Shown: positions 4,599 to 50,388 of the stretch, piece after piece
Numbering within the stretch: position 1 is the stretch's first letter
Layout: the number at the start of each line of letters is the position of its first letter
Source: Dehalococcoidia bacterium
GTDB lineage: Bacteria > Chloroflexota > Dehalococcoidia > GIF9 > AB-539-J10
Reading direction: 5' to 3'
Assembly (NCBI GenBank): GCA_030612025.1
Contig: JAUWOR010000001.1
Coordinates: forward strand, 96,001-160,000
Length of the DNA stretch: 64,000 bases
The notes under the pieces: generated by a model
The model's database searches: none
Seen by the model: only the letters and a program-made list of their open reading frames with translations
What the model was told of the DNA's origin: nothing
Translations under genes and position numbers: made by a program

Positions 4599-5858
<1,260 letters not shown>

Positions 5859-5958
5859 ATCTAAAAGGCAAAAGGCAAAAATACAGAGCAAAAATTAAAA
5901 AGTTTTGAAATTTGAGTGGTAACTTTGATTTTTTATTTTTAACTCTTGATTTTAATTG
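5859..5958. repeat. AT-rich imperfect inverted repeat built from ~7-nt units (AAAGGCA../TTTTGAT..)
   Basis: A-rich arm followed by a T-rich arm; same design as 27240-27415. Confidence 0.65.
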
Positions 5959-5960
5959 AG

Positions 5961-7172
5961 ATGCCAAATAGCTTTAATCAGCTAGCTTCATATTTAGCCA
6001 CTTCGGAATCGGTCACCGAGGGACACCCAGATAAGTTATGTGACCAGGTATCCGATGCCGTCCTCGATGCCATGCTGGAAAAAGACCCCTTTGCCCATGT
6101 TGCCTGCGAGGTTTCCGTCACCATGGGGATGGTGACGGTGATGGGTGAGATCACCTGCGATTGCTATGTAGAAATTCCTGATATTGCGCGCCAGGTACTC
6201 AAAGAAGCAGGCTATACACGACCTGAGTATGGCTTTGATTATCGAACTTGTGGCATCCTTGTCTCCCTCAAGGAACAGTCAAGCGATATCGCTGCCGGTG
6301 TTAGTCAATCCTTGGAGACAAGGATAGGAGAGATAACCGACGAAACTCTGGACAGAACTGGCGCCGGCGACCAGGGAATGATGGTCGGCTTTGCCTGCAA
6401 AGAAACGCCTGAACTCATGCCTTTGCCTATTACCCTAGCAAACAAGCTATGCCAACGCCTGGCTGAAGTAAGGAAAGACAAAACTATTCCTTACCTCCGC
6501 CCCGATGGCAAATCACAGGTCACTATTGAATACAGCCATGGCATACCAAAAAGAGTTGTTTGCCTCGTCCTTGGTGCTCAGCATGACCCTGGAGTGAAAC
6601 GTAGCACTATTGAACATGACCTTACAGAGCAGGTGATTAACAAAGTCATTCCCGCCAATCTAAGGGATAGCGAAACTAAAGTTTATATTAACAGTGCGGG
6701 ACAGTTTGTTATTGGGGGACCGGTAAGCGATACTGGCTTTACGGGGCGGAAAATCATAGCTGATACTTATGGCAGCGCCTGCCGACATGGCGGCGGTTGC
6801 TTTTCAGGCAAAGACCCCACTAAAGTAGACCGCTCTGCTGCCTATATGGCGAGATATGCTGCCAAAAATATAGTAGCTGCTGGACTTGCCGATTACATTG
6901 AGCTCCAAACTGCCTATACCATTGGTAAGGCTCGTCCTTTATCCTTGTCTATAGAGACATCTGGCACAGGGAAAGTTTCCGACGAAGCCATCCTGGAGCT
7001 CATCAATAAGCACTTCGACTTTCGCCCCGAAGCCATTATAAGGGCTCTAGATTTGCGCCGTCCTATTTATCGCCAAACCGCTGTTTATGGCCATTTCGGC
7101 AGAGAGGACCTTACCCTCCCGTGGGAGAAAACAGACAAAGCCAAGATATTAAGAAAAGAAGCAGGCTTGTAG
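5961..7172 (+). CDS. metK: S-adenosylmethionine synthetase
   Basis: [52 protein letters not shown]. Confidence 0.98.
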
Positions 7173-8434: not shown

Positions 8435-8771
8435 GATATCGCTCAGGGAAAACAAACGTCCAAAATGTTTAGGAGCTGGGCAAAATTCCCCAGCATGATG
8501 CAGAAGCTAAAGGTACTTAACAGGAAATGGTTAAGCTAGCGAAAGATTTATTTGCCAAATCGATGAAGTTAGAGAATCGGCTGCACTTTCACTAGCTACA
8601 TAGAAGGTTAGTCTAGTTGATAAAAGTGTCCAAATGTTCCAGAATGTATGCCTCAAGCTTAACTGGGAAGTAGCCCATAGCAGTTTGCTGCAATTTCGAA
8701 AAAGATGCCCAAGATTTATATAGGCGCAGATTGTGAAACCAAGGGCGGGCAAACAATGAGGTCGTATAGAT

Positions 8772-8975
8772 ATGGGAGCTAAGAGGAAGAATCCTGAGAT
8801 TGTCCTGAAAGACGGGAAGCCAACAGCAGTTATCCTTGATATAGATGAGTATCAAGAAATGCTGGAGCGTTTGGAGGATGCAGAAGACCTGAAAGTGCTT
8901 GAAGAAATGAGGAGAAAGCCTCTCGAGTTCAAGCGATTGGAAAATTTTCTGAATGAATACACCCCAAGCGTATGA
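8772..8975 (+). CDS. Phd/YefM-like antitoxin
   Basis: KDGKPTAVILDIDEYQEMLERLED; overlaps the toxin start. Confidence 0.85.
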   Translation: MGAKRKNPEIVLKDGKPTAVILDIDEYQEMLERLEDAEDLKVLEEMRRKPLEFKRLENFLNEYTPSV

Positions 8976-9222
8976 GGTTTATTTAGAGCGGGCGGCAGAA
9001 CAAGACCTCAAACGGCTATCAGCGAAGAATTTCCAAAGGATTATCCCTCATATCAAGGCATTAGCTGAGAATCCTAGACCCGTGGGTTGCCGAAAAATCT
9101 CTGGTTCACAGAATGACTGGCGTGTTAGGGTTGGAGATTATCGGGTTATCTACGAGGTTGCGGATAGGGAAAAGGTCGTTAGAGTTATGCGTATAAGACA
9201 TCGTGGAAAGGCTTATCGCTAA
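8953..9222 (+). CDS. RelE/ParE-family toxin
   Basis: LAENPRP.G..KI.G....WRVRVGDYRVIY...V.RIRHR..AY. Confidence 0.92.
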   Translation: MNTPQAYEVYLERAAEQDLKRLSAKNFQRIIPHIKALAENPRPVGCRKISGSQNDWRVRVGDYRVIYEVADREKVVRVMRIRHRGKAYR

Positions 9223-9423
9223 AAGCTAAGACTAAATTTTGACCTAAACCTTAAGTAAGTGGAGAAAAATATTCGTTCCTGCCTCTCACTCAAATCAAGC
9301 ACATCCCAGTAGAACTTTGTTTAATTGTTGATGTAGCAATCGTCCAAAATGCTTAGGAGCGGAGTCCTCTCATAAGTTATCGCTGAAACTGTTGCAATCG
9401 TTATGAATTCAAAAAGTAAGTGC

Positions 9424-9795
9424 CTATGCCTCCAAATAAATCACATCCTCTAAGCCTTTAAAGTGAGGATCAGAGGTCACTACAGGGCAGGTTTCTTTCA
9501 TTGCTGTAGCATAGACGATGGCATCAGCCATAGGTAGAGTGTGCTTTAAGCTAGTTTCAGCCGCTAGCAGGGCAATTTCTTCGCTTAAAGGCACTACTTT
9601 GGTTTTCATTATTTGAGCAATCACCAGGAGAGCCTCTTCCTCTTTGCACTCCCGCCTTAGCTTTTTATAAACTTCATAAAGAATTATTGTGGGAGTGACA
9701 ACCTCCGCCAGGTTGGCGAGGTACTCTTCGTAGCGCTCTACTAATTGACCCTCTGCCAAATACTCTATCCAGCCAAAGGAGTCAACTAGAATCAT
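9424..9795 (-). CDS. VapC/PIN-domain toxin
   Basis: ILVDS, LYEV, MADAIVYATA, TSDPHF acidic PIN residues. Confidence 0.92.
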   Translation of the reverse strand: MILVDSFGWIEYLAEGQLVERYEEYLANLAEVVTPTIILYEVYKKLRRECKEEEALLVIAQIMKTKVVPLSEEIALLAAETSLKHTLPMADAIVYATAMKETCPVVTSDPHFKGLEDVIYLEA

Positions 9796-9998
9796 ACCCG
9801 CTCTCCCTCTTCCCGGAGACCCTCAGTGCGCATCCCTCTAAAAAGCCCCCTTAATTCCTTGAGAGGATAATCAGGAACCAAAGTAATGGTTCCGCCCCTC
9901 ACAATGATTTGAAGCCTCTGGCCACTCCTCAATTTAAGCCGCTTTCGGACTTCCTTTGGAATCACCACTTGATATTTTGGAGAAAGAATCACTTCCAT
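9792..9998 (-). CDS. AbrB/MazE/SpoVT-type antitoxin (VapB)
   Basis: SPKYQVVIPKEVRKRL.L..GQ; 4-nt overlap with the toxin. Confidence 0.92.
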   Translation of the reverse strand: MEVILSPKYQVVIPKEVRKRLKLRSGQRLQIIVRGGTITLVPDYPLKELRGLFRGMRTEGLREEGERV

Positions 9999-10068
9999 CT
10001 CACACCTCCTGTATCGATATAAATATTGTATAACAATTTTTCTTAGACATCAATTAATTCTTATCCAT

Positions 10069-10199
10069 AGGCTGTTTAATCTTGGTTTCTTGCTCAACCT
10101 TAGACAATTCACGGATGTTTCGCCCCAGATTTTTGTAGTTGCCTGATTCATCAGGCACACTCGCCCAATAAATTGGGCAACTACATTTCTAAACCGCCT
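10069..10199 (-). mobile_element. MITE copy (divergent) with internal GTAG-type REP hairpin
   Basis: Ends AGGCTGTTTAA ... TTTCTAAACCGCCT; internal GTAGTTGCCTGATTCATCAGGC..GCCCAATAAATTGGGCAACTAC. Confidence 0.7.
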
Positions 10200-10213
10200 T
10201 TCTTATCCGCAGG

Positions 10214-10242
10214 TTGCCCTTTTTACTACCAGGCTTTATAAT
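10214..10242 (+). promoter_or_regulatory. Sigma70-type promoter for pgm-pgi
   Basis: TTGCCC-17 nt-TATAAT, 21 nt upstream of the ATG. Confidence 0.6.
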
Positions 10243-10263
10243 CTAAAGCTAAAAGTTCTTATC

Positions 10264-11700
10264 ATGCCTAAAACTCCGATTAAGTTTGGCACTGATGGCT
10301 GGAGGGGGATTATTGCTGAGGATTTCACCTTCGATAATGTGCGTATTTGTGCTCAGGGGGTGGCAGATTATGTCAAGCAAAGTGGCCTCAGCGAAAGGGG
10401 GCTGGTTATTGGCTATGACACTCGCTTTGCCTCTGAAGATTTCGCCGCTGCCGCTGCTGAAGTAGTTGCTGGCAATAATATCAAGGTTCACCTGTGCTTA
10501 AAGCCCACCCCTACACCAGTGGTAAGCTACACCGTCCCTGCTCTCAAAGCCGCTGGCGCTATCATCATCACTGCCAGCCATAATCCTGGTTCATGGAACG
10601 GATTCAAGTATAAATCCCAAGAAGGTGCCAGTGCCCCAAATGAGATTACCTCCCAAATAGAAAAAAACATTTATCAGCTGACAGCTGACAGCTATCAGTC
10701 ATCAGCTAAAAGGCTTGCCCTGGACAAAGCTTTGAAGAAGGGGCTAATAGACTATATGGACCCAGATCCTCCTTACTTTAGGCATCTAGCCAAGCTTATA
10801 GACATAGAAGAGCTACGAAAGCAAAAACTAAAGGTAATTGTCGACCCTATGTATGGTGCCGGAAGTGGCTACTTCAAGACGCTCCTTCAAGATGGGAATA
10901 TAGAACTTACTGAAATCAATAGTGAGAGAAATCCTTCATTTCCCGAAATTCAGCCAGAGCCAATTGCTAAAAACCTGACTAAACTTTCTAGGTTAGTCAA
11001 GGAACAAAAAGCCAACTTTGGCTTAGCCACCGATGGAGATGCCGACCGCATTGGCATCATAGATGAGAAGGGAAATTTTCTAAACCAGCATCAGGTCTTT
11101 GCCCTGCTTTGCCTTTACCTTCTGGAAGTTCGTGGTGAGCGAGGTGCCATAGTTAAAACGCTCACTTCCACTGAGATGATCTCTAAGTTAGGAAAAATCT
11201 TTGATGTCCCTGTCTATGAAACACCGGTGGGCTTTAAATACGTCGCCCCGCTTATGATACAAAAAAAGGCCATTATCGGCGGTGAAGAGAGTGGCGGCTA
11301 TGGATTTCGTGGCCATATCCCAGAGAGAGATGGCATTCTCGCCGGACTTTACTTTCTTGACTTTATGGTAAAAATGGGTAAAACGCCGTCCCAGCTCTTG
11401 GATTACCTTTATAGCAAAGTTGGCCCTCACTACTATGAGCGCATTGATTCCCATCTCACTAAAGGTAAGCGTCAAGCAATCTTAGACCGACTCTCCTCTG
11501 GTTCCATAGACACCATAGCTGGAGATAAGGTAACTAAAGTAGATACCACTGATGGCTTTCGCTTCTTTCTTGCCGATGAGTCCTGGTTGCTTATTCGTCT
11601 TTCTGGCACAGAGCCACTAGTCCGCCTTTATGCCGAGGGCGAAAGCCTCGAGAAAGTGAGAAATCTACTGAATGAAGGTAAGAAGATAATAGGCATTTAG
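10264..11700 (+). CDS. Phosphoglucomutase/phosphomannomutase family
   Basis: FGTDGWRG, TASHNP, DGDADR, GEESGG, RLSGTEP. Confidence 0.95.
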   Translation: MPKTPIKFGTDGWRGIIAEDFTFDNVRICAQGVADYVKQSGLSERGLVIGYDTRFASEDFAAAAAEVVAGNNIKVHLCLKPTPTPVVSYTVPALKAAGAIIITASHNPGSWNGFKYKSQEGASAPNEITSQIEKNIYQLTADSYQSSAKRLALDKALKKGLIDYMDPDPPYFRHLAKLIDIEELRKQKLKVIVDPMYGAGSGYFKTLLQDGNIELTEINSERNPSFPEIQPEPIAKNLTKLSRLVKEQKANFGLATDGDADRIGIIDEKGNFLNQHQVFALLCLYLLEVRGERGAIVKTLTSTEMISKLGKIFDVPVYETPVGFKYVAPLMIQKKAIIGGEESGGYGFRGHIPERDGILAGLYFLDFMVKMGKTPSQLLDYLYSKVGPHYYERIDSHLTKGKRQAILDRLSSGSIDTIAGDKVTKVDTTDGFRFFLADESWLLIRLSGTEPLVRLYAEGESLEKVRNLLNEGKKIIGI

Positions 11701-11703
11701 AAT

Positions 11704-12828
11704 ATGCTAGACCTGGATAATTTGGAGATATACCGGCAATATGACCCAAGTGGCATGCTGGTTCACCTTCATGGTTTGCCTCAGCAATGTCGCCAAGCTT
11801 GGGAAAAAGCCAGCAAGTTTGCCTTGCCGACTGACTTCAAGGACATCAACAAGATAGTTATTTGTGGCATGGGCGGCTCAGCCATCGGGGGTGATTTACT
11901 ACGCAGCCTGACTTCAGAATTAAACAAACCACTGGTATTTGTCCATAGAGGCTATGATTTGCCCGCATTTGTGGACCCAAAAACTCTGGTTATTGCTTCA
12001 AGCTATTCCGGAAACACAGAGGAAACTCTCTCTGCTTTCAAACAAGCTTTAACCACAAAGTGTAAGAAGCTTGCCATCACCACCGGCGGTAAATTAAAAA
12101 ATTTGGCCCAAGAAAATGATGTCCCCGTCTTTACCATAGATTATGTGTCTCAACCTCGAGCTGCCTTAGGCTATAGCTTTATTCCTCTCTTAGCTTTGCT
12201 TGCCAAATTGGGCTTCCTGGAGGATAAATCGGCTGATCCCACCTCGTCATTGCGAGCGAAGCGAAGCAATCTCACTGCACGAGCCTTGCCAGCCTTGGTA
12301 GAAGGAATGGCTCAACTACTTGAGGGGCTTTTAGACCAGCTAGCAGAAAACATACCGACATCTCTTAATCCAGCCAAACAGCTAGCCAGGAAACTATTCG
12401 GCAAGCTAATAGCCATCTATAGCGCTGGTATACTTTCCCCGGTAGCCCAAAGGTGGAAGGGGCAATTCAATGAAAATAGCAAAGCTTGGGCTTTCTACGA
12501 AACTTTCTCCGAACTCAATCACAATGCTGTGGTCGGCTACGAATTCCCCAAAGAAATGAAAAAAGGGATATATATAGTTATGCTCTGTTGCCCCTCACTC
12601 CATTCCAGAATCCTGAGTCGCTACCAAATAACCAGCGAAATCCTGGAAAAGGCTGGAGTGGAGCATGAAATTATCGATAGCCAAGGTGAAAATGACTTAA
12701 CTCGGATAATGAGCCTGGTATTCCTTGGCGACTGGGTAAGCTATTATTTAGCCATGCTTAATCAGACTGACCCCACACCGGTGAAGATGATTGATTACCT
12801 AAAGAAGCGATTAAACAGTATTGAATAG
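11704..12828 (+). CDS. Bifunctional phosphoglucose/phosphomannose isomerase (SIS + PGI/PMI C-domain)
   Basis: GMGGSAIGG, SYSGNTEET, QPRAALG, QFNENSK, ELNHN. Confidence 0.93.
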   Translation: MLDLDNLEIYRQYDPSGMLVHLHGLPQQCRQAWEKASKFALPTDFKDINKIVICGMGGSAIGGDLLRSLTSELNKPLVFVHRGYDLPAFVDPKTLVIASSYSGNTEETLSAFKQALTTKCKKLAITTGGKLKNLAQENDVPVFTIDYVSQPRAALGYSFIPLLALLAKLGFLEDKSADPTSSLRAKRSNLTARALPALVEGMAQLLEGLLDQLAENIPTSLNPAKQLARKLFGKLIAIYSAGILSPVAQRWKGQFNENSKAWAFYETFSELNHNAVVGYEFPKEMKKGIYIVMLCCPSLHSRILSRYQITSEILEKAGVEHEIIDSQGENDLTRIMSLVFLGDWVSYYLAMLNQTDPTPVKMIDYLKKRLNSIE

Positions 12829-12975
12829 TGCTAAATAGCGGAGGCTTTCAAAAAAATCGAACTGATTTTGAGAACCGCGGCTGAAAATCTCTACGCTCCA
12901 GCCACCGCCCTCTGACCTGTCGTTTCTAACGATTTCAAGTTTTTCTTTGACGGCAAATTCCTTTTCTATACTCGC

Positions 12976-13015
12976 GCATAACGTTCTTGGGCTTTGCGAA
13001 GTGCCCGAGGGGCAT
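12976..13015 (-). repeat. Partial attC-like site (3' half)
   Basis: Minus strand ...CTTCGCAAAGCCCAAGAAC-GTTATGC (GTTRRRY-like R') just after the stop codon of 13021..13593. Confidence 0.5.
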
Positions 13016-13020
13016 ATGAA

Positions 13021-13593
13021 TCACTTTTTCCCAAATTTCGGTATTCCTATCCATTTTGGGGTCTTATTCATATATTCTCGATATGCATTCCCATACCTCT
13101 CAAGACACATGCGTTCTTCGGGAATTGCCAAAATGTTCAGCAGGATTATGGATAGCATTGCGCATAGCAGAAAAACCCAGGAAGCACAGGCTATGCCTAT
13201 GCCGATGGGTATCAAGAAGAAGCCAAAGTACATAGGGTTTCTTGAAATGTGAAATGCCCCTTTGGTGCCTGGTTTATCCACCGGAGTAGTAGCAAAACTT
13301 AGCATTGCCATGGTGACAAAAATCATACCCAGCAAATAAATAAAGAATCCGGCATAGAACCAGGCTGTGCCTAGTTTCAGCGGCAAGAAAATACTATAAA
13401 TCCCTGAAGCATAATAAATCACCATATAGATATAATTGAGTTTCTTCTCCTTTTCATTATATTGGGGCCAAATGAACAGCGTCGCTTTCTTATTAACAAT
13501 CAAGTACCTCAGACCGTAACTTATTAAGACCATGCCAAGTATAAAAATCCAGGCATTCCATAAGCCTATCTCAAAAACTGGTGTAAATGACAT
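13021..13593 (-). CDS. Isoprenylcysteine carboxylmethyltransferase/PEMT-family membrane methyltransferase
   Basis: TM helices; G.F.ISRNPMY.G; EERMCLERYG.AYREY...TPKWIG. Confidence 0.88.
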   Translation of the reverse strand: MSFTPVFEIGLWNAWIFILGMVLISYGLRYLIVNKKATLFIWPQYNEKEKKLNYIYMVIYYASGIYSIFLPLKLGTAWFYAGFFIYLLGMIFVTMAMLSFATTPVDKPGTKGAFHISRNPMYFGFFLIPIGIGIACASWVFLLCAMLSIILLNILAIPEERMCLERYGNAYREYMNKTPKWIGIPKFGKK

Positions 13594-13706
13594 GATCTTT
13601 CCCCTTTAGTTCACTCTCCCCACTTCAATTTTTATTCATTTTCTAATTCTTACTTCATAGAAGGTTACTCTTATTTTTTATATTTTTGTTCCGAAGAGAG
13701 CATTAC

Positions 13707-13740
13707 GTCTAACGTTCCCAGCACATACGCTATGTTGGGC
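13707..13740 (-). repeat. Internally deleted attC-like site
   Basis: Minus strand GCCCAAC-20 nt-GTTAGAC (RYYYAAC / GTTRRRY), between two co-oriented genes. Confidence 0.55.
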
Positions 13741-13754
13741 GAAGTCGCCCATTA

Positions 13755-14285
13755 CTATACCGCTTTCAAGAAACTATACGTTCTTTTGCCCTTTCTTGAC
13801 AGCCTAAACAAGCCTTTATTTGTTAGCCTGGATATTATTTCACTTTCTTTCATATGATGGTCACTGAAGGATAGGATTCCATTCGGTTTCAATATCCGAT
13901 GTAACTCTTCTAGTACTCCATTTGGGTCACTCAACGTGTGAAAGGTATCGTATAATAGAACTACATCTACGCTATTATCAGGCAATCCAGTTTTGCAATC
14001 GGAACAAATGGTTTCCACATTCGTCAGTTGCTTTTTTGAAGCGCTACTCTGAACCATCCGGATTGCAAGTGGATGGATATCCAAGGCGTAAATTTTCCCT
14101 GATTCCCCCACCAATTCTGCAGCAGTGGTTATATAACTCCCAGGACCACAGCCATAATCAAGGATATGAAACCCTGGTTTTATCCCCACCTCTTCCAAGA
14201 TATTCTTGCGGGGTAAGAAGAAATCTCGAAATTTGTAGGTGAAAGACATAACTTTAAAATGAAATTTGGGTTCTGGTTTATCCAT
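13755..14285 (-). CDS. Class I SAM-dependent methyltransferase
   Basis: ILDYGCGPG motif I, YALDIH, LHRILKPNG; ATG at 14285 preceded by AGGAGG. Confidence 0.9.
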   Translation of the reverse strand: MDKPEPKFHFKVMSFTYKFRDFFLPRKNILEEVGIKPGFHILDYGCGPGSYITTAAELVGESGKIYALDIHPLAIRMVQSSASKKQLTNVETICSDCKTGLPDNSVDVVLLYDTFHTLSDPNGVLEELHRILKPNGILSFSDHHMKESEIISRLTNKGLFRLSRKGKRTYSFLKAV

Positions 14286-14321
14286 GGTAGTTTCCTCCTG
14301 TTTTCCTTTTAAAAGGCGATT

Positions 14322-14408
14322 TCGTCTAACGTCTCGCGGGTATATGAAGTTGTCCGTAAGGGCAATTTGGGCGGAGCGAAGCATAGCCATATACCCGCTG
14401 TTAGACGA
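14322..14408 (-). repeat. Complete attC-like recombination site
   Basis: TCGTCTAAC...GTTAGACGA outer arms; perfect 11-bp inner arms GCGGGTATATG/CATATACCCGC with asymmetric spacers; 87 bp. Confidence 0.75.
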
Positions 14409-14462
14409 GTCTGTTAAGACCAAATTTCTTTCAGAAATTTGAGTGCGAGCAAGCCGCCACTT

Positions 14463-15272
14463 TTATTTCCTACCAACGTATATTCCATATCCGAAGTATT
14501 TGAACAAACCGAAAATACTCTTGGGGATTGCCAAAGTTTCTTTTATAAATTTCCTGCAAGCTGAACTTTTGATGAACAGGAACAAAAATCTGTACCAGGC
14601 TCTCAGGAAATCCAAAAACTCTAACTGGCTAACTTCGCTAATCCACTGGCCTAGAGCGTTGACTTTGTAGGTTCTTACTACCATATCCCTCAATCCAGAG
14701 CCTCCCAACAATTCTTGCCAACCATCAGAAGTCAGAATTTCTTTAACCCCGGAAATGCGAGATAGATATTCAACCAATTCTGTTGGAGGTGGTGCTTTTA
14801 TCCAAGTACACTCATTAAGCCCGACGTATCCTCCTGGCTTTGTTACCCGCACATACTCGCTTACCGCTCTCTGTTTGTCTTCTACAAATGCGTTTACGGA
14901 CTCGCAAATGACTGCGTCGAAAAGGGCGTCCTCGAAAGGGAGGTTTTGTGCGTCTGCTACCCTAAATTCAACTCTATCCTCTACACCTTCTCTTTTCACC
15001 CTTTCATTTGACCAATCGATCATCCTTTCATAAATGTCCACCCCGACCACTCTACAGCCATACCTTTTTGCAAGGTAGCAAAGAGTTACTCCAACGCTAC
15101 AACCGACAACCAGGACGTATTTGCCTTTGTTTATGTGGCATAACTCAATTAGCTCTTTTGTGGCCTTTAAACCCCCCATATGTTTTGTGATGCCCAAGTA
15201 AGCTTGAAATTCGAAGTAAGGGCTTTCCAGTTCTGAAACCTCTTCCGGTGATGATTGTTTTTTATTCTCCAT
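14463..15272 (-). CDS. Class I SAM-dependent methyltransferase (UbiE/Methyltransf_11-like)
   Basis: H.GGLKAT, VLVVGCSVG, VGVDI, ADAQNLPF.D..FDAV, RVTKPGG. Confidence 0.9.
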   Translation of the reverse strand: MENKKQSSPEEVSELESPYFEFQAYLGITKHMGGLKATKELIELCHINKGKYVLVVGCSVGVTLCYLAKRYGCRVVGVDIYERMIDWSNERVKREGVEDRVEFRVADAQNLPFEDALFDAVICESVNAFVEDKQRAVSEYVRVTKPGGYVGLNECTWIKAPPPTELVEYLSRISGVKEILTSDGWQELLGGSGLRDMVVRTYKVNALGQWISEVSQLEFLDFLRAWYRFLFLFIKSSACRKFIKETLAIPKSIFGLFKYFGYGIYVGRK

Positions 15273-15434
15273 TTTTCACTTGAAATGAATAAGTCTTTGC
15301 TATTTAAAAGGATTTCGTAGGTGGCGAGCATTTCGTCTAGCTCGCTTCTGCAAAGTATTTTTGCTAAAAGACGTTTTTCTTATATGTTATACCAAACTGC
15401 TTATCTATCTGAACGAGATCGGCCATTTTCCAAC

Positions 15435-15526
15435 TGGCGGAGGGAGTGGGATTTGAACCCACGACCCCGATTTCTCGGGGTAAGCGCTTAGCAGGCGCCC
15501 GCACTAGGCCACTATGCGATCCCTCC
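15435..15526 (-). tRNA. tRNA-Ser(GCT)
   Basis: Reverse complement GGAGGGA..TAGTGG..CTGCTAA..long variable arm..GGTTCAAATCC..CCCTCCGCCA; CCA encoded. Confidence 0.95.
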
Positions 15527-16093: not shown

Positions 16094-16981
16094 ATGAAAG
16101 TTTCGAACGTGAAGGAGTACCCAGCAATATGGCTACAATGTGCTGCCTGCACTGGGTGCTCTGTTTCAGTTCTCAATGCTGTAAATCCCTCTATTAAAAA
16201 TCTACTAATTGATGAGGTGCTCCCCGGGAAGCACATAAATTTGAGATTCCACCCCACTGTGATGGCAGGATCGGGAGCACCAGTGGTCGAAGTTATGGAG
16301 GATACCTCAAAGCAGAAAAGGGGTGATTATATTCTCATCGTAGAGGGTGCTATTCCTACAGCCAAGAACGGCATCCACGGGGTAGTTGGGGAGAAGGCTG
16401 GAAAGCCTGTGACCATGCTGTCGCGGTTTGAGGAGTTAGCCAAAGATGCCCTAGTAGTTATAGCCTTGGGGACTTGTGCTGCCTTTGGGGGAATCCCGGC
16501 TGCTCATCCCAACCCTAGCCAATGCCTTAGCGTGGGAGATGTTCTTCAATCTCGAGACATCAATACCTTTTTGGTAAACATCCCAGGCTGCCCACCACAC
16601 CCCGATTGGTTTGTGGGCACAGTGGCAAGTATCTTGTTTTCAGGCTTACCAAAGCCAGAGGACTTGGACGAATATAGACGTCCCAAAGCCTTCTATGGTC
16701 AACTAATCCATGAAAACTGCCCGCGGCGAGCCTACTACGATGAGAACAAGTTTGCTAAGAAGTTTGGCGATCCCGGCTGCCTCTATGAACTGGGATGCAA
16801 GGGTTCAGTAACCTATTCCGATTGTCCTTTAAGGCTTTGGAACAATGGGGTGAACTGGTGTATAGCTAATGGTTCCCCTTGTATTGGTTGCACGGAGCCA
16901 GGCTTTCCTGATGAAGTGTCACCTCTTTACGAGAAGATAACAGCCACTCTGCCGGAAACACCAACAGGAGGTTCGAGTTAA
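16094..16981 (+). CDS. [NiFe] hydrogenase small subunit, group 1-type, no Tat signal
   Basis: WLQ..ACTGC, GTCAAFGG, PGCPPHP, HENCPRR, CLYELGCKG..TYSDC, WC..NGSPCIGCTEP. Confidence 0.93.
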   Translation: MKVSNVKEYPAIWLQCAACTGCSVSVLNAVNPSIKNLLIDEVLPGKHINLRFHPTVMAGSGAPVVEVMEDTSKQKRGDYILIVEGAIPTAKNGIHGVVGEKAGKPVTMLSRFEELAKDALVVIALGTCAAFGGIPAAHPNPSQCLSVGDVLQSRDINTFLVNIPGCPPHPDWFVGTVASILFSGLPKPEDLDEYRRPKAFYGQLIHENCPRRAYYDENKFAKKFGDPGCLYELGCKGSVTYSDCPLRLWNNGVNWCIANGSPCIGCTEPGFPDEVSPLYEKITATLPETPTGGSS

Positions 16982-18540
16982 TGGGTAAGATTATAATCGA
17001 CCCGGTAACACGCATTGAAGGGCATCTCAAAATCGAGGTGGTGGTTGAGAATAAAGAAGTAAAGGAAGCTAGGAGTTCAGGGACATTATTTCGCGGCTTA
17101 GAGCTAATCCTAAGGGGCAGAGATCCCCGTGATGCCCAACGGATAACTCAGCGTATTTGTGGGGTTTGCCCCACAAGCCACTCCACAGCAGCCGCTCTAA
17201 GCTTGGATAGTGCTTTCGGAATCGCTGATAAAATACCGGATAATGGTAGGATAATACGTAATCTAATTCTTGGCGCAGCTCATATCGCAGACCACATCCT
17301 CCACTTCTATCACCTGGTTGCCCTCGACTATGTGGATGTAACTGAAATAGCAAAATATGAAGGCAATACCCCGACCCTAAATTCAATAAAGAGCTTTATT
17401 AAGCGAGGTGAGCTTGGTCCCTTTATCCCTCGCTATGAAGGCGATTATCGCTTGCCCGATAAGGTTAATGAGCAAGCGGTAGCTCATTATGTTCAGGCAT
17501 TTGATATGCGCCGTAAAGGTCAAGAGATGCTTTCTCTCTTTGGCGGCAAGATGCCTCACAATGTTGGCATCGTCCCTGGAGGTGTTACTTCTACTCCTAC
17601 AGTAGATAAGATAATATCCTTCCTGTGGAGGCTTAAAGAGCTCCAAGAATTTATCGATAACGTCTATATCCCCGACGTAGCAGCAATAACCCAAGCTTAT
17701 CCCGATTACCTTGAGATTGGGCATGGTTGCGGGAGCTTGCTTTCCTATGGAGCCTATGAACTGGATGGGAAGGAGCCTAACCTCACAAAAAGGAAGAGAC
17801 TATTTAAGCCAGGAATAACTTCCACCGACCTTAGCTTTAATGGGCTGAAGCCAGATAAAATTGCCGAGGAAGTGAAGCATTCTTGGTATAGTGATTCCAT
17901 TAGTGGCAGGCATCCCTCTCAAGGCGACATTATACTCAATGAGGAGAAGGATGGGGCCTATTCCTGGATAAAATCCCCGCGTTATGAAGGCAAGGTTTAT
18001 GAGGCTGGTCCCTTAGCTCGACTCATGGTTACCTATGTTAGTGGCAAGCCTGAGGTTAAAAGCCTTGTTGACTCCACCTTGGCGAAGCTAAGTATAAGTA
18101 TAGATGCTATGTTCTCCGTTTTAGGGCGTCACCTTGCTCGAGCCCTGGAAACCAAGTTTATAGCTGATTCCATGGCTGATTGGCTCTTGGAGCTCAAGCC
18201 TAATGAGCCAGCTTATGTAAGCTACGAGCTTCCACAGGAGGCTACTGGAATGGGTTTGACTGAGGCAGCCAGGGGAGCATTGGGACATTGGATAGAGATA
18301 AGAGAGGGCAAAATTGCCAATTATCAAGTCGTTACTCCCACTAGCTGGAATGCCTCCCCTATAGATGATAGGGAACAACCTGGACCTATTGAGCAGGCTA
18401 TCACAGGAGCCAAGATAAAGGATGAAGCTAATCCCTTTGAAATCGTGCGCATTGTGCGCTCCTTTGACCCCTGCTTAGCCTGTGCCGTACATTTAATTAG
18501 TCCTAAGGGGCATGATCTAGGGGCATATCGCATCTGTTGA
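16981..18540 (+). CDS. [NiFe] hydrogenase large subunit, group 1a (HysA/HynA-like, Cys not Sec)
   Basis: DPVTRIEGH, L1 QRICGVCPTSH, L2 RSFDPCLACAVH plus a cleavable C-terminal tail. Confidence 0.95.
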   Translation: MGKIIIDPVTRIEGHLKIEVVVENKEVKEARSSGTLFRGLELILRGRDPRDAQRITQRICGVCPTSHSTAAALSLDSAFGIADKIPDNGRIIRNLILGAAHIADHILHFYHLVALDYVDVTEIAKYEGNTPTLNSIKSFIKRGELGPFIPRYEGDYRLPDKVNEQAVAHYVQAFDMRRKGQEMLSLFGGKMPHNVGIVPGGVTSTPTVDKIISFLWRLKELQEFIDNVYIPDVAAITQAYPDYLEIGHGCGSLLSYGAYELDGKEPNLTKRKRLFKPGITSTDLSFNGLKPDKIAEEVKHSWYSDSISGRHPSQGDIILNEEKDGAYSWIKSPRYEGKVYEAGPLARLMVTYVSGKPEVKSLVDSTLAKLSISIDAMFSVLGRHLARALETKFIADSMADWLLELKPNEPAYVSYELPQEATGMGLTEAARGALGHWIEIREGKIANYQVVTPTSWNASPIDDREQPGPIEQAITGAKIKDEANPFEIVRIVRSFDPCLACAVHLISPKGHDLGAYRIC

Positions 18541-18556
18541 TAAGGACAAAAGAGAA

Positions 18557-18991
18557 ATGGAAACCATCATTCTGGGAATAGGGAATGTCCTATTGAAGGA
18601 CGAGGGAGTGGGGTGCCATGTCGCCCACGCTTTGGAGAAAATTCCCCTTCCCAATACAAAGGTGATAGATGGCGGGACATCCCCAAATATATTGTTCCTC
18701 GAGGACGCCGCTAAATTGATTGTAGTGGATGCTGTTAAGGGGGGAGGGGTGCCAGGAGAAGTTTATCGCTTTCGTCTTGATGATATAGCTCTAGAGCAAA
18801 AGCCATTTCTATCCCTTCACGATATAGGCTTAATAGACAATTTGCTGTTAATGAGACTTTTACATAACATAGGCGAGACCATCATTATTGGGGTTGAGCC
18901 CAAAGAGATAGAGTGGAGTTTGGAATTATCGCCTGAGCTTCAAGCGAAGATACCTCGGATAGTGGAGACGATATTAGCAGAACTTAGTTAG
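18557..18991 (+). CDS. Hydrogenase maturation protease (HyaD/HybD family)
   Basis: LGIGNVLLKDEGVG, IDGGT, VVDAV, SLHD. Confidence 0.93.
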   Translation: METIILGIGNVLLKDEGVGCHVAHALEKIPLPNTKVIDGGTSPNILFLEDAAKLIVVDAVKGGGVPGEVYRFRLDDIALEQKPFLSLHDIGLIDNLLLMRLLHNIGETIIIGVEPKEIEWSLELSPELQAKIPRIVETILAELS

Positions 18992-19033: not shown

Positions 19034-19684
19034 ATGTTGATTTCAGAGCAAAAACCACTCGAGGAAATTTTGAGTTACCTTGATGGTGAAAGGAATATTT
19101 TTCTCATCGGCTGCAAAGGATGTGCTGAAGGCTGTGAGAGCGGTGGGGAGAAGCAAGTGCTGGAAATGAAGCACACCTTAGAGGGGCAAGGCAAAGCAAT
19201 TAGTGGTTTCTCAATTATCGATATGGTGTGCAATGAGACATTGACCAGGATGAAGTTAAAAACTCACCAGGAGGAGATGAAGGCTGCGGATTCGATTTTG
19301 GTGCTTACCTGTGGTACTGGGGTGCAAACAGTGGCAGGAGCGACAGATAAAGTTGTACATCCTGGCTGTAATACCTTATCCTCTGGCGGTGCCCATGCTG
19401 AATGGAAGGAAGCAGAGCGCTGTCTTGAGTGTGGTGACTGCGTGTTGGAATTCACCGGTGGCATCTGTCCCATTGCCAGATGCTCCAAGCATTTGCTTAA
19501 CGGCCCTTGTGGCGGCTCGCAAGGAGGCAAGTGTGAGGTTGATCCGAGCATTCCCTGCGCTTGGCAATTGATTATTGAGAGGTTAACTAAATTAGGGCAA
19601 CTTGACAAGCTGGAGAAGATTGTGGCACCGAAAAACTGGAGTGTAAGCCTTATTGCCGGTCCACCAGTAAAAAGGGGGCTCTAA
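19034..19684 (+). CDS. metV: Methylene-THF reductase MetV subunit (MTHFR C-terminal-like zinc/FeS protein)
   Basis: GCKGCAEGC, CGTGVQ, CLECGDC..TGGICPIARCSK.LLNGPCGG..GKCE...CAW. Confidence 0.88.
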   Translation: MLISEQKPLEEILSYLDGERNIFLIGCKGCAEGCESGGEKQVLEMKHTLEGQGKAISGFSIIDMVCNETLTRMKLKTHQEEMKAADSILVLTCGTGVQTVAGATDKVVHPGCNTLSSGGAHAEWKEAERCLECGDCVLEFTGGICPIARCSKHLLNGPCGGSQGGKCEVDPSIPCAWQLIIERLTKLGQLDKLEKIVAPKNWSVSLIAGPPVKRGL

Positions 19685-19709
19685 AAATTCGAAGACTTTT
19701 CAGGATCAA

Positions 19710-19850
19710 AGGGTGTTCAAAAATGTAGTACGAGGCTTTAGCCTCGTGCACGACCCTAAAGGGTCGCACTACGAGAATCTTGGAGGTGAAGAGTATTAAA
19801 ACTGGATGAGACAAATCCAGTTTTGAATCTGAGGCAAAATTAAACAGCCT
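19710..19850 (+). mobile_element. 141-bp MITE with internal REP doublet
   Basis: AGGGTGTTCAAAAA ... AATTAAACAGCCT termini; colinear with 29551-29691. Confidence 0.8.
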
Positions 19851-19871
19851 CGGGTCAAGTAAGGAGGTAGG

Positions 19872-20789
19872 ATGAAGACCAAGAGCAATTTGGAGAGGGT
19901 GCTTGAAGCTGGGCATTTCGCTGTCACTGGCGAAATAGGACCACCGCCAAGCGCCGACTCTGAGGTGATAAAGAGAAAAGCAAGAATACTCAAAGGTCAT
20001 GTTGATGCCTTTAATGTCACTGATGGTCAAACAGCCGTGGTGCGCATGTCAAGTTGGGCAGCTTGCCTTATAGGAAAAGAAGAAGGCTTAGACCCTATTG
20101 TTCAAATGACTTGTCGGGATAGAAATCGCATTGCCCTTCAGATGGATATATTAGGCGCGGCAGCATTAGGTATAAATAATATCTTGTGCCTCACTGGCGA
20201 CCACCAGAAATTCGGCAATCATCCTATGGCTAAAGGCGTCTTTGACCTCGATTCCATCCAATTCCTCAAAGTGGTAAAGGATATGAGGGATGAAAAGAAG
20301 TTCCAGTGTGGTGACGAGATGGCGGTTGAGCCAAACCTCTTCACAGGGGCAGCTGCCAATCCCTTCGCCGATCCCTTCGAGTTTAGAGTAATTCGTCTTG
20401 CCAAGAAAGTAGCCGCAGGGGCGGATTTCATTCAAACTCAGATCGTCTACAATATGGATAAGTTTGCCGAGTGGATGAAGCGCGTGCGCGATAGGGGATT
20501 ACATGAGAAGGTAAAAATCCTTGCCGGGGTTGCTCCGATAAAATCAGTAGGCGCGGCAAGGTATATGAAGACCAAAGTTCCTGGGATGGATGTCCCTGAT
20601 AGCATTATTGAACGCCTCCGTGGTGTGCCCAAAGAGCGAGTCTCAAAGGAAGGGATTAAGCTCTGTGTTGATATTATCAATCAGGTGCGCCAGATCGAAG
20701 GTGTAGCTGGTATTCATCTCATGGCTATTGAGTGGGAGGAGACTGTGCCTGAGATAATAGAGGCAGCGGGCCTTCTACCCCGCCCTTAA
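19872..20789 (+). CDS. metF: Methylenetetrahydrofolate reductase MetF (copy 1)
   Basis: EIGPP, NVTD, TCRDRNR, LCLTGD, VFDLDS, GADFIQTQ, GIHLM. Confidence 0.93.
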   Translation: MKTKSNLERVLEAGHFAVTGEIGPPPSADSEVIKRKARILKGHVDAFNVTDGQTAVVRMSSWAACLIGKEEGLDPIVQMTCRDRNRIALQMDILGAAALGINNILCLTGDHQKFGNHPMAKGVFDLDSIQFLKVVKDMRDEKKFQCGDEMAVEPNLFTGAAANPFADPFEFRVIRLAKKVAAGADFIQTQIVYNMDKFAEWMKRVRDRGLHEKVKILAGVAPIKSVGAARYMKTKVPGMDVPDSIIERLRGVPKERVSKEGIKLCVDIINQVRQIEGVAGIHLMAIEWEETVPEIIEAAGLLPRP

Positions 20790-21118
20790 TCTGGGCATAA
20801 ATGAAAAGCCCCCATTTATCATTTCAAATATGCCAGAGCAAGCTCACGAGCTTGCCTGTGAACAGTTGGCAAGTATAGATATAGAAGAGATATACAGCAA
20901 AACTGGTGCCCAATATATCATTTCGAGGAGCGAAGCGCCGGATGCCAGGAGTTGCTAGCCACTTTCCGGTGTTTTCCCAAAAGGCTATAAGGTCCTTTTT
21001 AAACCACTTCGGTAGAGAGTCTGAGTTGCTAACAGATGCTGCCGCCAAACCGGAGGCCGTAAGGCAAACTAGGCTGATGTATCCGAGAGCATTAACGCCT
21101 TCCACCAAGTACCTGTAA

Positions 21119-22066
21119 TTATTGCCTCCCCAATTCTTCAAGGGAAGTGCGAGGATAAAGACCACTAGCCTCACAGATCTCTGGAACAACTTCTTCCCAT
21201 TCAATAGCCATGATATGGATACCTGCTACCCCTTCTATTTCCTTCAGACTGTTTATGGTTTCCACGGCAATTTTTATCCCGTCCTTCCGCACTTGCTCCC
21301 TAGTAGTAGCCTTGCGAAGGCGCTCAATGAGCTCATCGGGAACGTCCACCCCAGAAAGCTTTGTCTTCATATATCTCGCTATGGCTACAGATTTTAGTGG
21401 AGTAATACCGGCAAGGATTTTTACTTTCTTGTGCAGTTCCCTCTCCCGAACCATTTCCATCCATCTTTCAAACTTCTTAATGTGATAAACACTTTGAGTT
21501 TGTATAAAGTCCGCCCCGGCAGCAACTTTCTCCCCGAGGCGAATCACTTCGTGCTCCGTGGGCTCGGCAAAGGGGCTTGTTACTGCCCCAATGAAAAGTC
21601 TTGGTTCTCTTCCAGCTATTAACTCCCCATTCTCAAACTTTTTTTCATCCCGGAGTCCTTTGACCATCCTGATAACTTGGATAGAATCGAGGTCGAAAAC
21701 GGATTTTGCCTCAGGGCAATTTCCAAAAGAAACAGGATCACCGGAGAGACAAAGTATGTTATTCACACCAAACGTGGAGATGCCCAAAATGTCCATCTGG
21801 AGAGCAATTCGATTTCTGTCACGACAAGTCATTTGCACTATGGGATCAAGCCCTTCTTGTTTCCCTATAAGGCAGGCTGCCCAGCTTGCCATCGCTACCA
21901 CCGCTGACTCTCCATCCGGAACATTAAAAGCATCAACATAGCCTTTAACAAGATTAGCTTTTTCCCTTATCACCTCGGGTTCCGTATTCCGAGGGGGACC
22001 GATTTGAGCAGTCACGGCAAAATATCCTGCTTCGAGTACCCTTTCTAGGTTGCTTTTCGTCTTCAC
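21119..22066 (-). CDS. metF: Methylenetetrahydrofolate reductase MetF (copy 2, convergent paralog)
   Basis: Same N-terminus MKTKSNLERVLEAG as copy 1; TCRDRNR, GADFIQTQ; GTG start. Confidence 0.92.
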   Translation of the reverse strand: MKTKSNLERVLEAGYFAVTAQIGPPRNTEPEVIREKANLVKGYVDAFNVPDGESAVVAMASWAACLIGKQEGLDPIVQMTCRDRNRIALQMDILGISTFGVNNILCLSGDPVSFGNCPEAKSVFDLDSIQVIRMVKGLRDEKKFENGELIAGREPRLFIGAVTSPFAEPTEHEVIRLGEKVAAGADFIQTQSVYHIKKFERWMEMVRERELHKKVKILAGITPLKSVAIARYMKTKLSGVDVPDELIERLRKATTREQVRKDGIKIAVETINSLKEIEGVAGIHIMAIEWEEVVPEICEASGLYPRTSLEELGRQ

Positions 22067-48758: not shown

Positions 48759-48895
48759 AGGCTGTTTAATTTTGCCTCATCCGGATTCTCGTAGTGCGAC
48801 CCTTTAGGGTCGTGCACGAGGCTAAAGTAGTTGCCTGATTTATCAGGCTCTTATTGCCCAATAAATTGGGCAACTACTACATTTTTAAACACCCT
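48759..48895 (-). mobile_element. MITE copy with a second REP nested in the first
   Basis: Same termini as 19710/29551; GTAGTTGCC...GGCAACTAC hairpin replaces part of the REP doublet. Confidence 0.8.
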
Positions 48896-50388
48896 CAGGC
48901 TGTCCTCCCTTCTTTGAGTCGCCTCCGGTCTATTTTACCCGAGCCAGTCTTGGGTATGCTTTCTACAAGTTCAATTTTATGGGGCAACTTATAATTAGCT
49001 AAGCTTTGACGGCAAAATTCGCGTATTCCCTTCTTACTAATAGTCTGTCCTTCCTTGGGCACTACAAACAGTGTCGGGATTTGCCCTTTAAGCTCATCCA
49101 TAACACCGACATATGCTGCTTCGGCAACACTGGGATGCTTTAAAAGCACATCCTCAACCTCTGTGGGGGGGATTTTGACTCCAGCCGAGGTTACTATAAT
49201 AAATGATTTCTTCTCGATATAGTCTATATAGCCATCTTCATCTATGCGGACTAAGTCGCCAGTATGAAACCAGCCGCCCTTAAGAACTTGAGCCGTGAGC
49301 TCAGGCACTTTATAATATTTCTTCATTACCTGAGGACTCCGACAAACAATTTCTCCTATTTCACCCTGGGGAACTTCCTTGCCAGCGGCATCTATTATCT
49401 TGATATCCTCAATTGGCTTACCTGCTGTCCCTAGCTTACGGTTGTGAATATCACCAAGGGTAGTAGCAATAGCCTCAGTAGTCCCGTATATCTCACAAAG
49501 GGTCAAGCCAAACTTCTCCTCCAAAGCCTTCATAAGATGAGCCGAGGCTTTTGCCCCGGCAGTACACGCCACCCGTAAGGAACTGAGGTCATAACTCTTA
49601 AGGGTCTCATCATCTAACATGGCTAGGGCATTATACATAGCTGGGACGCCCACCAGTATAGTTGCCTTCTCCTGCTCTACAACCTCTAAAAAATTCTTGG
49701 GAGTGAAACGAGGAAGAATTACTATAGTGGACCCTTTCATAGACGAAATAAGCCCAACAACTAACAAACCTAGGGCGTAAAAGAAGGGAATCATACCTAC
49801 GGTGATATCTTCTCTCTCTTGCCCCAAACCAGGAGCCACAGTGGTAGCAGCTACCATGAGCGAACTATGAGTATGCACTACACCCTTTTGCTTCCCTAAA
49901 ACACCAGAGGTGTATATGATGGCAGTCTCATCGTCATCTTTCATATCAACAACTGGTGATGTAGAAGAGCTATCAGCTATCATCTTGGTATAAGAGTCGC
50001 TATCAACTTCGATAATGTGTTTCAGTAAAGGGATGTTGGGGAGGATCGAAAATAGCATCTCAGAAAAACTTTTTTCTGTTAGCAAGATCGTAGAATCGGA
50101 GTCACGGAGTAAGAAATCATATTCAGGCGCCTTAAGCATAGCATTAAGGATTACAGTCTTGCCTCCAGCTTTGACAACTCCAAAGTAGTTAATAAGCCAC
50201 TCTGGATTATAGGACATTAAAATAGCTACATGGTCGCCTTTCTTCATCCCTAGCCCCATAAGGGCGTTGGCTATCCTATTAGAGCGTTCGTCTAATTCTT
50301 GATAACTAACTCTTTCAGGGCCAAGGACAATAGCAGTCTTCTGCGGCACCTCCCTGGCAGTTCTCTCCAGCATCTGTTTGATATTCAT
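48895..50388 (-). CDS. ANL-superfamily acyl-adenylate ligase (acyl-CoA/acyl-ACP synthetase-like)
   Basis: IIYTSGVLGKQKG, YGTTE, WFHTGDL, PKTGSGKI. Confidence 0.88.
   Translation of the reverse strand: MNIKQMLERTAREVPQKTAIVLGPERVSYQELDERSNRIANALMGLGMKKGDHVAILMSYNPEWLINYFGVVKAGGKTVILNAMLKAPEYDFLLRDSDSTILLTEKSFSEMLFSILPNIPLLKHIIEVDSDSYTKMIADSSSTSPVVDMKDDDETAIIYTSGVLGKQKGVVHTHSSLMVAATTVAPGLGQEREDITVGMIPFFYALGLLVVGLISSMKGSTIVILPRFTPKNFLEVVEQEKATILVGVPAMYNALAMLDDETLKSYDLSSLRVACTAGAKASAHLMKALEEKFGLTLCEIYGTTEAIATTLGDIHNRKLGTAGKPIEDIKIIDAAGKEVPQGEIGEIVCRSPQVMKKYYKVPELTAQVLKGGWFHTGDLVRIDEDGYIDYIEKKSFIIVTSAGVKIPPTEVEDVLLKHPSVAEAAYVGVMDELKGQIPTLFVVPKEGQTISKKGIREFCRQSLANYKLPHKIELVESIPKTGSGKIDRRRLKEGRTA

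Follow-up and report, generated by a model that had tools for sequence, protein, structure and literature searches.

Arrays of gene cassettes with no integrase beside them have been described as CALINs (attC site clusters that have no integron-integrase), for which the published rule asks for two or more attC sites in a cluster within about 4 kb (PMC4889954, PMC9024848). A 2016 survey saw no complete integrons in very small genomes (Cury et al. 2016, PMC4889954), and an extra domain specific to the integron integrase, IntI, is named as the hallmark of that enzyme (PMC4889954, PMC9024848, PMC9668308). In archaeal integrons, attI is described as following the integrase gene directly, and CALINs make up most of the arrays (Ghaly et al. 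2022, Sci Adv, PMC9668308). The rAID-1 loci of Bacteroidales are described as having, on the 5′ side, a XerD-like recombinase with over 44% identity to BF9343_RS08045 and at least two co-directional downstream genes (Ross et al. 2019, bioRxiv 10.1101/471110). Here we analyze a 64,000-nucleotide stretch of a Dehalococcoidia genome (the window), in which three methyltransferase genes next to a tRNA-Ser(GCT) gene very probably form the relic of an integron-type site-specific gene-capture array (12976-15356), orphaned and decaying. We call the source genome G000 (the window is G000:C4:96001-160000) and use other G numbers for the genomes of relatives, C for contigs, and L for extracted loci. The G000 assembly comprises 1.40 Mb in 19 contigs, with a G+C content of about 45% and a completeness of 95.6%.

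attC-type sites and probable cassettes beside tRNA-Ser

The variable locus lies between a PGI-type isomerase gene and tRNA-Ser(GCT) and contains three minus-strand open reading frames (ORFs), MT3, MT2, and a PEMT-like gene (Table 1). The original prediction, made from the letters of the window, delimited these genes by four integron-type sites next to a tRNA-Ser; the tRNA gene is present, and all four sites were found at the positions it gave. On the coding strand, the 87-bp site that ends cassette 1 consists of R″ TCGTCTAAC, a spacer of A, L″ GCGGGTATATG, a 41-nt loop, L′, the spacer GAGAC, and R′ GTTAGACGA. Its R box pairs over 9 bp (TCGTCTAAC with GTTAGACGA) and its L box over 11 bp (GCGGGTATATG with CATATACCCGC), which agrees with the palindrome expected of attC (R box, spacer, L box, and a loop of 20-100 nt). 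The core sites GTCTAAC (14324-14330) and GTTAGAC (14400-14406) fit the R″ RYYYAAC and R′ GTTRRRY patterns with their AAC/GTT triplets. Folded as DNA, the + strand of the site reaches −22 kcal/mol, which none of 200 shuffles equaled.

When the whole 1.4-Mb genome was scanned strictly for RYYYAAC...GTTRRRY palindromes, this site was the single match. Requiring an L box of at least 8, the scan gave no matches in the reversed genome or in any of five shuffled genomes; at an L box of at least 6 it gave one in the reversed genome and 0, 3, 1, 0, and 0 in the shuffled ones, so it is only the long L box that sets the 87-bp site apart. The strict scan misses seven other sites of the same family in G000 that are found by a covariance model, and it serves as a control for chance only. 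That model, R1, was built from seven related sites (87.8% of cells paired, six pairs with double changes). At E ≤ 0.01, it finds about 100 places in 45 of the 119 genomes of the same family, eight of them in G000 (one each on C4 and C7, two each on C8, C14, and C15). The 87-bp site, from which R1 was built, scores 113 bits on the minus strand vs. 16.8 on the plus strand. R1 sites are co-oriented with ORFs, about one per gene, and form small co-oriented tandem sets with a spacing of 0.4-1.7 kb, for example in G004:C1, G087:C1, G009:C1, and G199:C144; the two on C15 of G000 lie 0.4 kb apart. Among 54 aligned matches (50 distinct), 85.2% of cells pair, vs. at most 41.3% with the partners slid, and compensatory double changes are seen in 15 of 20 pairs (189 cells); because the alignment was fitted to the R1 model, these counts lean towards structure. 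On the coding strand, the family consensus consists of tCgtaTAAC, then A, a covarying arm of 11 nt, a loop that contains cttcgcccAAAT and ACTT, the other arm, caaAAC, and GTTAt.cGaaAtt. Its TAAC and GTTA columns are almost invariant across the 50 family sites, and the conserved motif of the loop is GCCCAAAT. The model is lineage-specific, as it found no match in seven loci of recombinase relatives from other families.

At the locus itself, the remaining sites are degenerate, in agreement with an earlier claim of attC decay. The cassette 2 site (13707-13740) folds with z of −1.8 and −2.3 and scores 16.4 bits with R1 (E about 0.1), and the cassette 3 site folds with z of −0.4 and −0.6 and has no R1 match at E ≤ 10; neither fold is significant. 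Set against the family consensus, these two sites, after MT2 and the PEMT-like gene, would be attCs that retain the loop motif and the GAAC^GTTA end (the caret marks the crossover) and have lost the 5′ arm. At the other end, the array starts 93 bp downstream of tRNA-Ser(GCT), co-oriented with it, at an attI-like site whose core reads GCTAGAC on the minus strand (15335-15341). The same position holds the canonical GTTAGAC in G003, and contigs from three other metagenome runs also read GTTAGAC (15340 G>A), which makes GCTAGAC a point mutation. Read on the coding strand, the three gene units open with G^CTAGACGAAATGCTC, G^TTAGACGAAATCGCC, and G^TTAGACGTAATGCTC, which share the word TTAGACG(A/T)AAT, and the array ends in AAC G^TTATGC. 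Of the complementarity rule proposed earlier for the cassette ends, one part stands, namely that cassette starts are complementary to the cassette's own R″. In the second pair it named, the conserved loop motif is more likely to take part than an R″ box, as TTCGCCCAAC matches that motif better.

All three ORFs have Pfam or NCBIfam support as methyltransferases, as had been claimed. The best NCBIfam match of MT3 is the DVU_1556 family (93 bits, under the cut-off of 155). For MT2, a start at the ATG at 14285 (176 aa, behind GGAGG) is more likely than one at the TTG at 14423, placed inside the attC. The PEMT-like ORF scores 41.6 bits, under the cut-off, with the NCBIfam isoprenylcysteine methyltransferase family, and homologs with 48-52% identity in G002:C112, G008, and G024 have a fuller attC left arm right after the stop codon. 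The functional bias towards methyltransferases noted in the original prediction holds for this locus, and a second methyltransferase-rich array exists in G004:C1, with two further S-adenosylmethionine (SAM) methyltransferases among three cassette ORFs. Nevertheless, the bias is local, because the other arrays of G000 hold different genes (MNT/HepT, a 1071-aa Type ISP-like methylase, a haloacid dehalogenase (HAD), a glyoxalase, MarR, and unknowns), which is typical cassette cargo. One of these arrays, G000:C14:39494-45319 (L070), opens with a perfect attI-like motif followed by an MNT/HepT pair and an attC; further along lie the Type ISP-like methylase, a 183-aa ORF, the HAD hydrolase, and a second attC.

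Table 1. Features of the variable locus and attI-like motifs of related genomes (positions in the window; the caret marks the crossover)
Feature	Position	Strand	Remarks
Intact 87-bp attC-type site, end of cassette 1	14322-14408	-	fold z = −5.25; sole match of the strict scan; R1 113 bits
Degenerate attI-like array start	15326-15356	-	reads ACTTTGCAGAAGCGAG^CTAGACGAAATGCTC; crossover between 15341 and 15340; aligns with the attI-like motif of G018, G042, G009, and G003
Truncated attC of cassette 2 (predicted from the family consensus)	13707-13750	-	loop motif CTTCGCCCAA retained, along with a short 3′ arm and GAAC^GTTAGAC; without R″/L″
Decayed attC of cassette 3	12976-13015	-	keeps GCCCAAG and AAC^GTTATGC; array end, with its crossover between 12982 and 12981, where the shared PGI-side flank is joined
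Cassette 1	14330-15340	-	MT3 ORF 14463-15272, 269-aa class I SAM methyltransferase; Pfam Methyltransf_11 2e-25
Cassette 2	13713-14329	-	MT2 ORF 13755-14285, 176-aa class I SAM methyltransferase; Pfam Methyltransf_31 1.6e-23 (value from the longer, 222-aa reading)
Cassette 3	12982-13712	-	ORF 13021-13593, 190-aa membrane methyltransferase, PEMT/ICMT type; Pfam PF04191 35.1 bits, cut-off 25
tRNA-Ser(GCT)	15435-15526	-	directly upstream of the array and co-oriented with it; ARAGORN and Rfam
Bifunctional PGI/SIS-type isomerase gene	11704-12828	+	core flank bounding the variable locus; Pfam bact-PGI_C 1.6e-51; flank conserved in G002, G003, G004, and G018
attI-like motif, G018			TTCGTATAGAACCGAG^TTAGACGAAAT
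attI-like motif, G042			TTCGTATAGAAACGAG^TTAAGTGAAAT
attI-like motif, G009			TTCCTATATACCGAAG^TTAGGCGAAAC
attI-like motif, G003			ACTTTGTAGAAGCGAG^TTAGACGAAAT

Cassette presence in relatives and the attI-like motif

A DNA search over 41 genomes matched 16, including G000. In G003 the entire 2.6 kb is kept at 95% identity, with all three genes in the same order. In G002 and G004 the PGI-side flank is joined straight to the same intact attC, and the stretch corresponding to window positions 12982-14329, that is, the MT2 and PEMT cassettes, is absent, with breakpoints at G^TT cores. Such presence or absence of whole cassettes with G^TT junctions is cassette behavior. It also answers the suggestion that these might be syntenic core genes, as MT2 and PEMT are missing from the orthologous locus of both congeners, and, together with the covarying sites found in arrays, it bears out the earlier reading of integrase-less cassettes with decaying attCs. 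MT3 is found in the matches of all four congeners. In G009, which belongs to another genus, the MT3 unit is homologous precisely up to the upstream core, and the gene is part of a different array. At the same PGI/tRNA-Ser(GCT) locus, G018 has a major facilitator superfamily transporter gene with a weak 19-bit site after it. The stretch is also present in 20 metagenome runs from nine studies of cold-seep and marine sediments. Contigs from three studies span the PEMT-MT2 junction with about 2% differences, and none of the metagenome contigs searched carries the joint seen in G002 and G004. Two contigs join the PGI side to the tRNA side, from 12964 to 15351 (X3, side 58) and from 12800 to 15433 with 30 letters between (X10); these joints are short-sided and may come from other organisms.

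These comparisons bear on two ways of explaining the palindromes without gene capture. A chance palindrome between ordinary core genes would fit the single strong site at the locus and the conserved order of all three genes in G003, but it is scarcely credible in view of the empty strict-scan controls at an L box of at least 8, the covarying family of about 100 to which the site belongs, and the genes missing from the orthologous locus of congeners. Alternatively, the hairpins could be repetitive extragenic palindromic (REP)-like or miniature inverted-repeat transposable element (MITE)-like intergenic elements, or terminators, gene content varying by homologous recombination or deletion between them. 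The sites are indeed palindromic, intergenic, and dispersed, with eight in G000, and a hairpin could also end transcription. We consider this explanation very unlikely, though, because the sites carry AAC/GTT cores and share the orientation of ORFs, with about one site per gene, cassettes begin with sequence complementary to their own R″, breakpoints fall at G^TT, and arrays begin at an attI-like site behind a tyrosine recombinase (see below). As for a terminator, there is no T-run pattern at the 87-bp site. A promoter and terminator scan of the locus gave no signal above shuffles, and Rfam found nothing at the 87-bp site or elsewhere in the window except two tRNAs.

The attI-like motif between the tRNA and the first cassette is common to four genomes (Table 1). 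A pattern search returned 39 matches in 28 of the 119 family genomes, vs. seven for the reversed-pattern control. A co-oriented R1 site lies at most 1.5 kb downstream at 10 of 30 motif loci. Four of the 30 have a co-oriented tRNA-Ser ending just upstream (anticodons GGA, TGA, GGA, and GCT), no tRNA of another type adjoins the motif at any of the 30, and 26 have no adjacent tRNA. The placement right behind tRNA-Ser genes recurs in several genera. Many motif loci carry a second direct copy, ATTAGRCGAA, about 8 nt upstream, and their flanks group into orthologous positions. Signal recognition particle RNA was considered as the identity of some upstream flanks and was not borne out; Rfam had no match in 20 of the 30 loci. 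The layout of a tRNA followed by a cassette is also found in G018, G171, G009, G042, and G095 and at G000:C8. G000 has five tRNA-Ser genes among its 47 tRNAs; behind two of these, C4 GCT and C8 GGA, lies a cassette with attC. At the C8 locus (G000:C8:47928-50146, L072), tRNA-Ser(GGA) is duplicated (48798-48886 and 49283-49371) around a 396-bp insert with a small ORF, tRNA-Ser(CGA) lies upstream, and a 238-aa ORF and an attC lie downstream.

A small genomic islet, targeted to tRNA-Ser and inserted by a classical island integrase no longer present, would explain why the locus abuts the 3′ end of the tRNA and why its content differs between genera. We nevertheless find such an origin highly improbable. 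No tRNA-Ser repeat of at least 11 nt occurs anywhere in 9001-15434, and a classical tRNA island is made less likely by the lack of any tRNA fragment repeated at the distal end. Moreover, there is no integrase in this region of the window, the variable units are single genes bounded by attC-type sites, and most motif loci stand without a tRNA.

A candidate recombinase for the arrays

No integron integrase is encoded in G000, as the best match to the IntI profile TIGR02249 in the whole genome reaches 54 bits against a cut-off of 265; nor does any protein exceed the cut-off of NCBIfam NF040815 (best 195.5 bits vs. 220). The earlier claim that the window lacks intI thus holds and extends to the rest of the 95.6%-complete genome. 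Classical IntI does occur nearby in the taxonomy. One of 201 genomes of the order is over the cut-off, G184 of the same family (347 bits), where on C218 intI is divergent from two cassettes with 136-bp attCs; G010 holds an IntI pseudogene; and across the class, 9 of the 401 genomes sampled exceed the cut-off. The locus could then be an ordinary CALIN whose cassettes were moved by a classical integron integrase, since lost or unassembled, the Xer-like recombinase described below being a bystander mobile element with a similar core. The attCs of G184 have the same R″-A-L″ layout, and archaeal attCs of diverse form are described as being recombined by IntI1 (PMC9668308), which also favors this explanation. 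We hold it to be unlikely, while giving it appreciable weight. Within 1.5 kb on either side of 14 canonical IntI loci, none has an R1 site (one 12.5-bit match at E = 0.99) or the attI-like motif with at most two mismatches, a negative result that is weak because the flanks examined were short. In addition, the attI regions of G184 and G010 are unlike the motif, and none of 16 genomes of g16, the genus of G184, has R1 matches.

A different enzyme is found directly in front of the attI-like site. In G018:C55, a 380-aa recombinase (P0002, 5943-7082) is followed by AAACGAAGTAGG TTCGTTTATCCATAG^TTATATGAAATTCC, a 160-aa ORF, and an R1 attC, all co-oriented. P0002 shares 30% identity with the IntI of G184, in an alignment that has gaps of 26 and 10 residues where the IntI-specific insertion lies; relative to XerC/D, it has no insertion. 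With NF040815, P0002 and five relatives that head arrays score 220.5-249 bits, and with TIGR02249 they score 216-251 bits, below the cut-off and in two stretches. In G236 (90% identical to P0002, with one TAG) and G418 (69%, with two TGA), an attI-like site stands directly after the gene, and no attC was detected within 1.5 kb after either recombinase. The 90% identity between G236:C4:51875-52792 and the G018 gene spans two families of the class and indicates recent horizontal transfer. In G004:C1, a decayed copy (internal deletion, no start codon) precedes three R1 sites; because it is decayed, it cannot show activity. The integron-integrase partner implied by the original prediction is at best partly upheld, as in relatives the attI-like site follows an Xer-like recombinase without the IntI insertion and was found at none of the 14 canonical IntI loci.

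Relatives of P0002 are numerous, with 7331 proteins at E ≤ 1e-40 among 8000 scored, in bacteria and archaea, and the closest include archaeal and Spirochaetota entries. Across 80 loci of such relatives, drawn from many phyla, 155.6 kb downstream of the recombinase contain 31 attC-like palindromes vs. five in 237.4 kb upstream, and at least one is present at 20 of 45 loci downstream vs. 4 of 61 upstream. As in the window, the shorter spacer is on the 5′ side in 24 of 30 sites behind recombinase relatives. Behind the gene, Ignavibacteriota (L164, with four sites of 130-132 bp) and Desulfitobacterium (L153) have textbook arrays, and in two archaeal loci (L146 and L166, on Methanosarcinales and Methanoperedenaceae contigs), the attI-like site after the recombinase is nearly the same as the Dehalococcoidia motif. 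At 26 of the 80 loci (L128-L207), the contig ends less than 400 nt past the recombinase gene, as expected if the repeats of attC arrays break assemblies. At L111, L112, and L113 (G548, G216, and G483), relatives with 40-46% identity precede an IS91-like zinc-finger transposase gene and not cassettes, so the recombinase family also serves another kind of mobile element.

Taken by sequence comparison, the chances that the cognate enzyme of the window's sites is a Xer-like recombinase of the NF040815 type without the IntI insertion, as encoded in G018, G236, G418, and G004, appear to be about even. Our proposal for the history of the locus is that each of the three single-gene cassettes (MT3, MT2, and PEMT-like) once ended in a folded attC-type site (R″...AAC, L″, loop, L′, GTT...R′), and that whole cassettes were inserted or excised through strand exchange at G^TT by a tyrosine recombinase acting in trans. 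Such a recombinase would no longer be encoded in G000. The attCs of cassettes 2 and 3 appear to have lost their 5′ arms and the attI-side core to have mutated to GCT, which would have fixed these two cassettes; cassette 1, with its attC intact, could be moved only by an imported recombinase. We predict that the cassettes are probably read through from the promoter of tRNA-Ser.

We also put forward, tentatively and with somewhat less than even confidence, a wider hypothesis. The window would be an orphan landing pad of a second, widespread integron-like system, in which a Xer-like integrase (NF040815 type), without the domain held essential for folded attCs, is encoded co-oriented before attI and attC polarity comes from the 1-nt vs. 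5-nt spacers, not from bulges. Copies of attI alone would have been seeded at conserved places, notably behind Dehalococcoidia tRNA-Ser genes, where cassettes would be installed in trans and transcribed from the tRNA promoter. The near-identical attI in methane-cycling archaea of similar sediments would then suggest a cross-domain exchange route.

Several observations weigh against the gene-capture reading or its extension to a Xer-like enzyme. Only one attC at the locus scores, and it does so with a model built from that site and its relatives. As to the two-site rule for CALINs, the three sites give 113 bits, 16.4 bits, and no score, respectively. The CALIN label used earlier holds insofar as the cassettes are integrase-less with no integrase nearby, and is provisional under the formal rule of at least two sites. 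As a complete integron the locus does not qualify, with no IntI in G000 and the recombinase by the same attI-like site in G018 being without the insertion. In classical attCs, extrahelical bases and symmetric unpaired central spacers set the choice of strand. The 87-bp site differs from these, having 1 nt on the R″-L″ side, 5 nt on the L′-R′ side, and no bulge in its L box. Beyond the distal crossover, G000 and G003 read CGCGAGT vs. AAAA in G002 and G004; because the bases past the distal core differ between the forms, the PEMT/MT2 indel is not a clean single-excision product. Homologs of MT2 stand in non-cassette contexts in G001 and G035. Finally, the link to a recombinase comes from a single intact unit that includes an R1 attC (G018:C55), a decayed one (G004:C1), and the attI-like sites of G236 and G418 without attC, and a close P0002 homolog is present in only 3 of the 119 family genomes.

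Elsewhere in the window, profile search confirmed the ahcY (4602-5858) and metK (5946-7172) genes that had been reported near the array. Two methylenetetrahydrofolate reductase (MTHFR) paralogs (19872-20789, +, and 21119-22066, −) lie beside an MTHFR C-terminal-domain protein (the group spans 19034-22066), downstream of a NiFe hydrogenase operon (16094-18991); with MTHFR paralogs near ahcY-metK, this is a methyl-metabolism neighborhood. Two toxin-antitoxin pairs are also present, an antitoxin with ParE (8770-9222) and an AbrB-type antitoxin with PIN (9424-9998). The former is flanked by a repeat of about 22 bp, CGTCCAAAATG(T/C)TTAGGAGC, near 8457-8480 and 9342-9365, where no attC-type site was seen.

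Comparison with known integron-like systems

This kind of array is already known (it is CALIN-like), and related layouts are in print for archaeal integrons and rAID-1. Our literature searches returned no paper on attC arrays in Dehalococcoidia, on tRNA-anchored arrays, or on attC arrays run by an integrase without the IntI domain. The locus shows captured genes kept in a streamlined 1.4-Mb sediment bacterium, in which recombination sites decay and cassettes become ordinary chromosomal genes. If it is true that an insertion-less enzyme recombines folded attCs, the textbook need for the extra domain would require revision, and many 'CALINs' in phyla without IntI would be complete systems. The orphan attI sites linked to tRNA-Ser and the near-identical archaeal attI also bear on cassette expression and cross-domain gene flow.

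As in the CALINs and sedentary chromosomal integrons described in print (Cury et al. 2016, PMC4889954; Neron et al. 2022, PMC9024848), the locus consists of co-oriented single-gene units ending in a folded AAC/GTT palindrome, with a G^TT crossover, no integrase nearby, and sites alike within the lineage, and the cargo elsewhere in G000 includes toxin-antitoxin pairs and a glyoxalase. Unlike those descriptions, it has one intact site, spacers of 1 and 5 nt, an unbulged L box, and a loop with the conserved motif GCCCAAAT; an orphan attI-like site, placed behind a tRNA gene, opens the array, the recombinase of relatives lacks the IntI domain, and the genome measures 1.4 Mb. The attI directly after the recombinase gene in relatives recalls archaeal integrons (PMC9668308). 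By description, however, the IntIs of the latter match the IntI-specific profile (PMC9668308), whereas the G018-type enzyme matches TIGR02249 in two sub-cut-off pieces. In layout, the locus is also like rAID-1, as presented in 10.1101/471110, with its co-directional downstream genes and intergenic repeats said to recall integrons, and many Bacteroidota relatives of the G018 recombinase head palindrome arrays. The cargo of rAID-1, in contrast, is given as interbacterial immunity genes, and the locus studied here is without a recombinase. Closer by, the classical integron at G184:C218 differs from this locus in its IntI, which has the insertion and is divergent from the cassettes, in its 136-bp attCs, which escape R1, and in its attI. 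What the two have in common are attCs at the 3′ ends of co-oriented ORFs and the R″-A-L″ spacing, with a GTTATGT core in G184.

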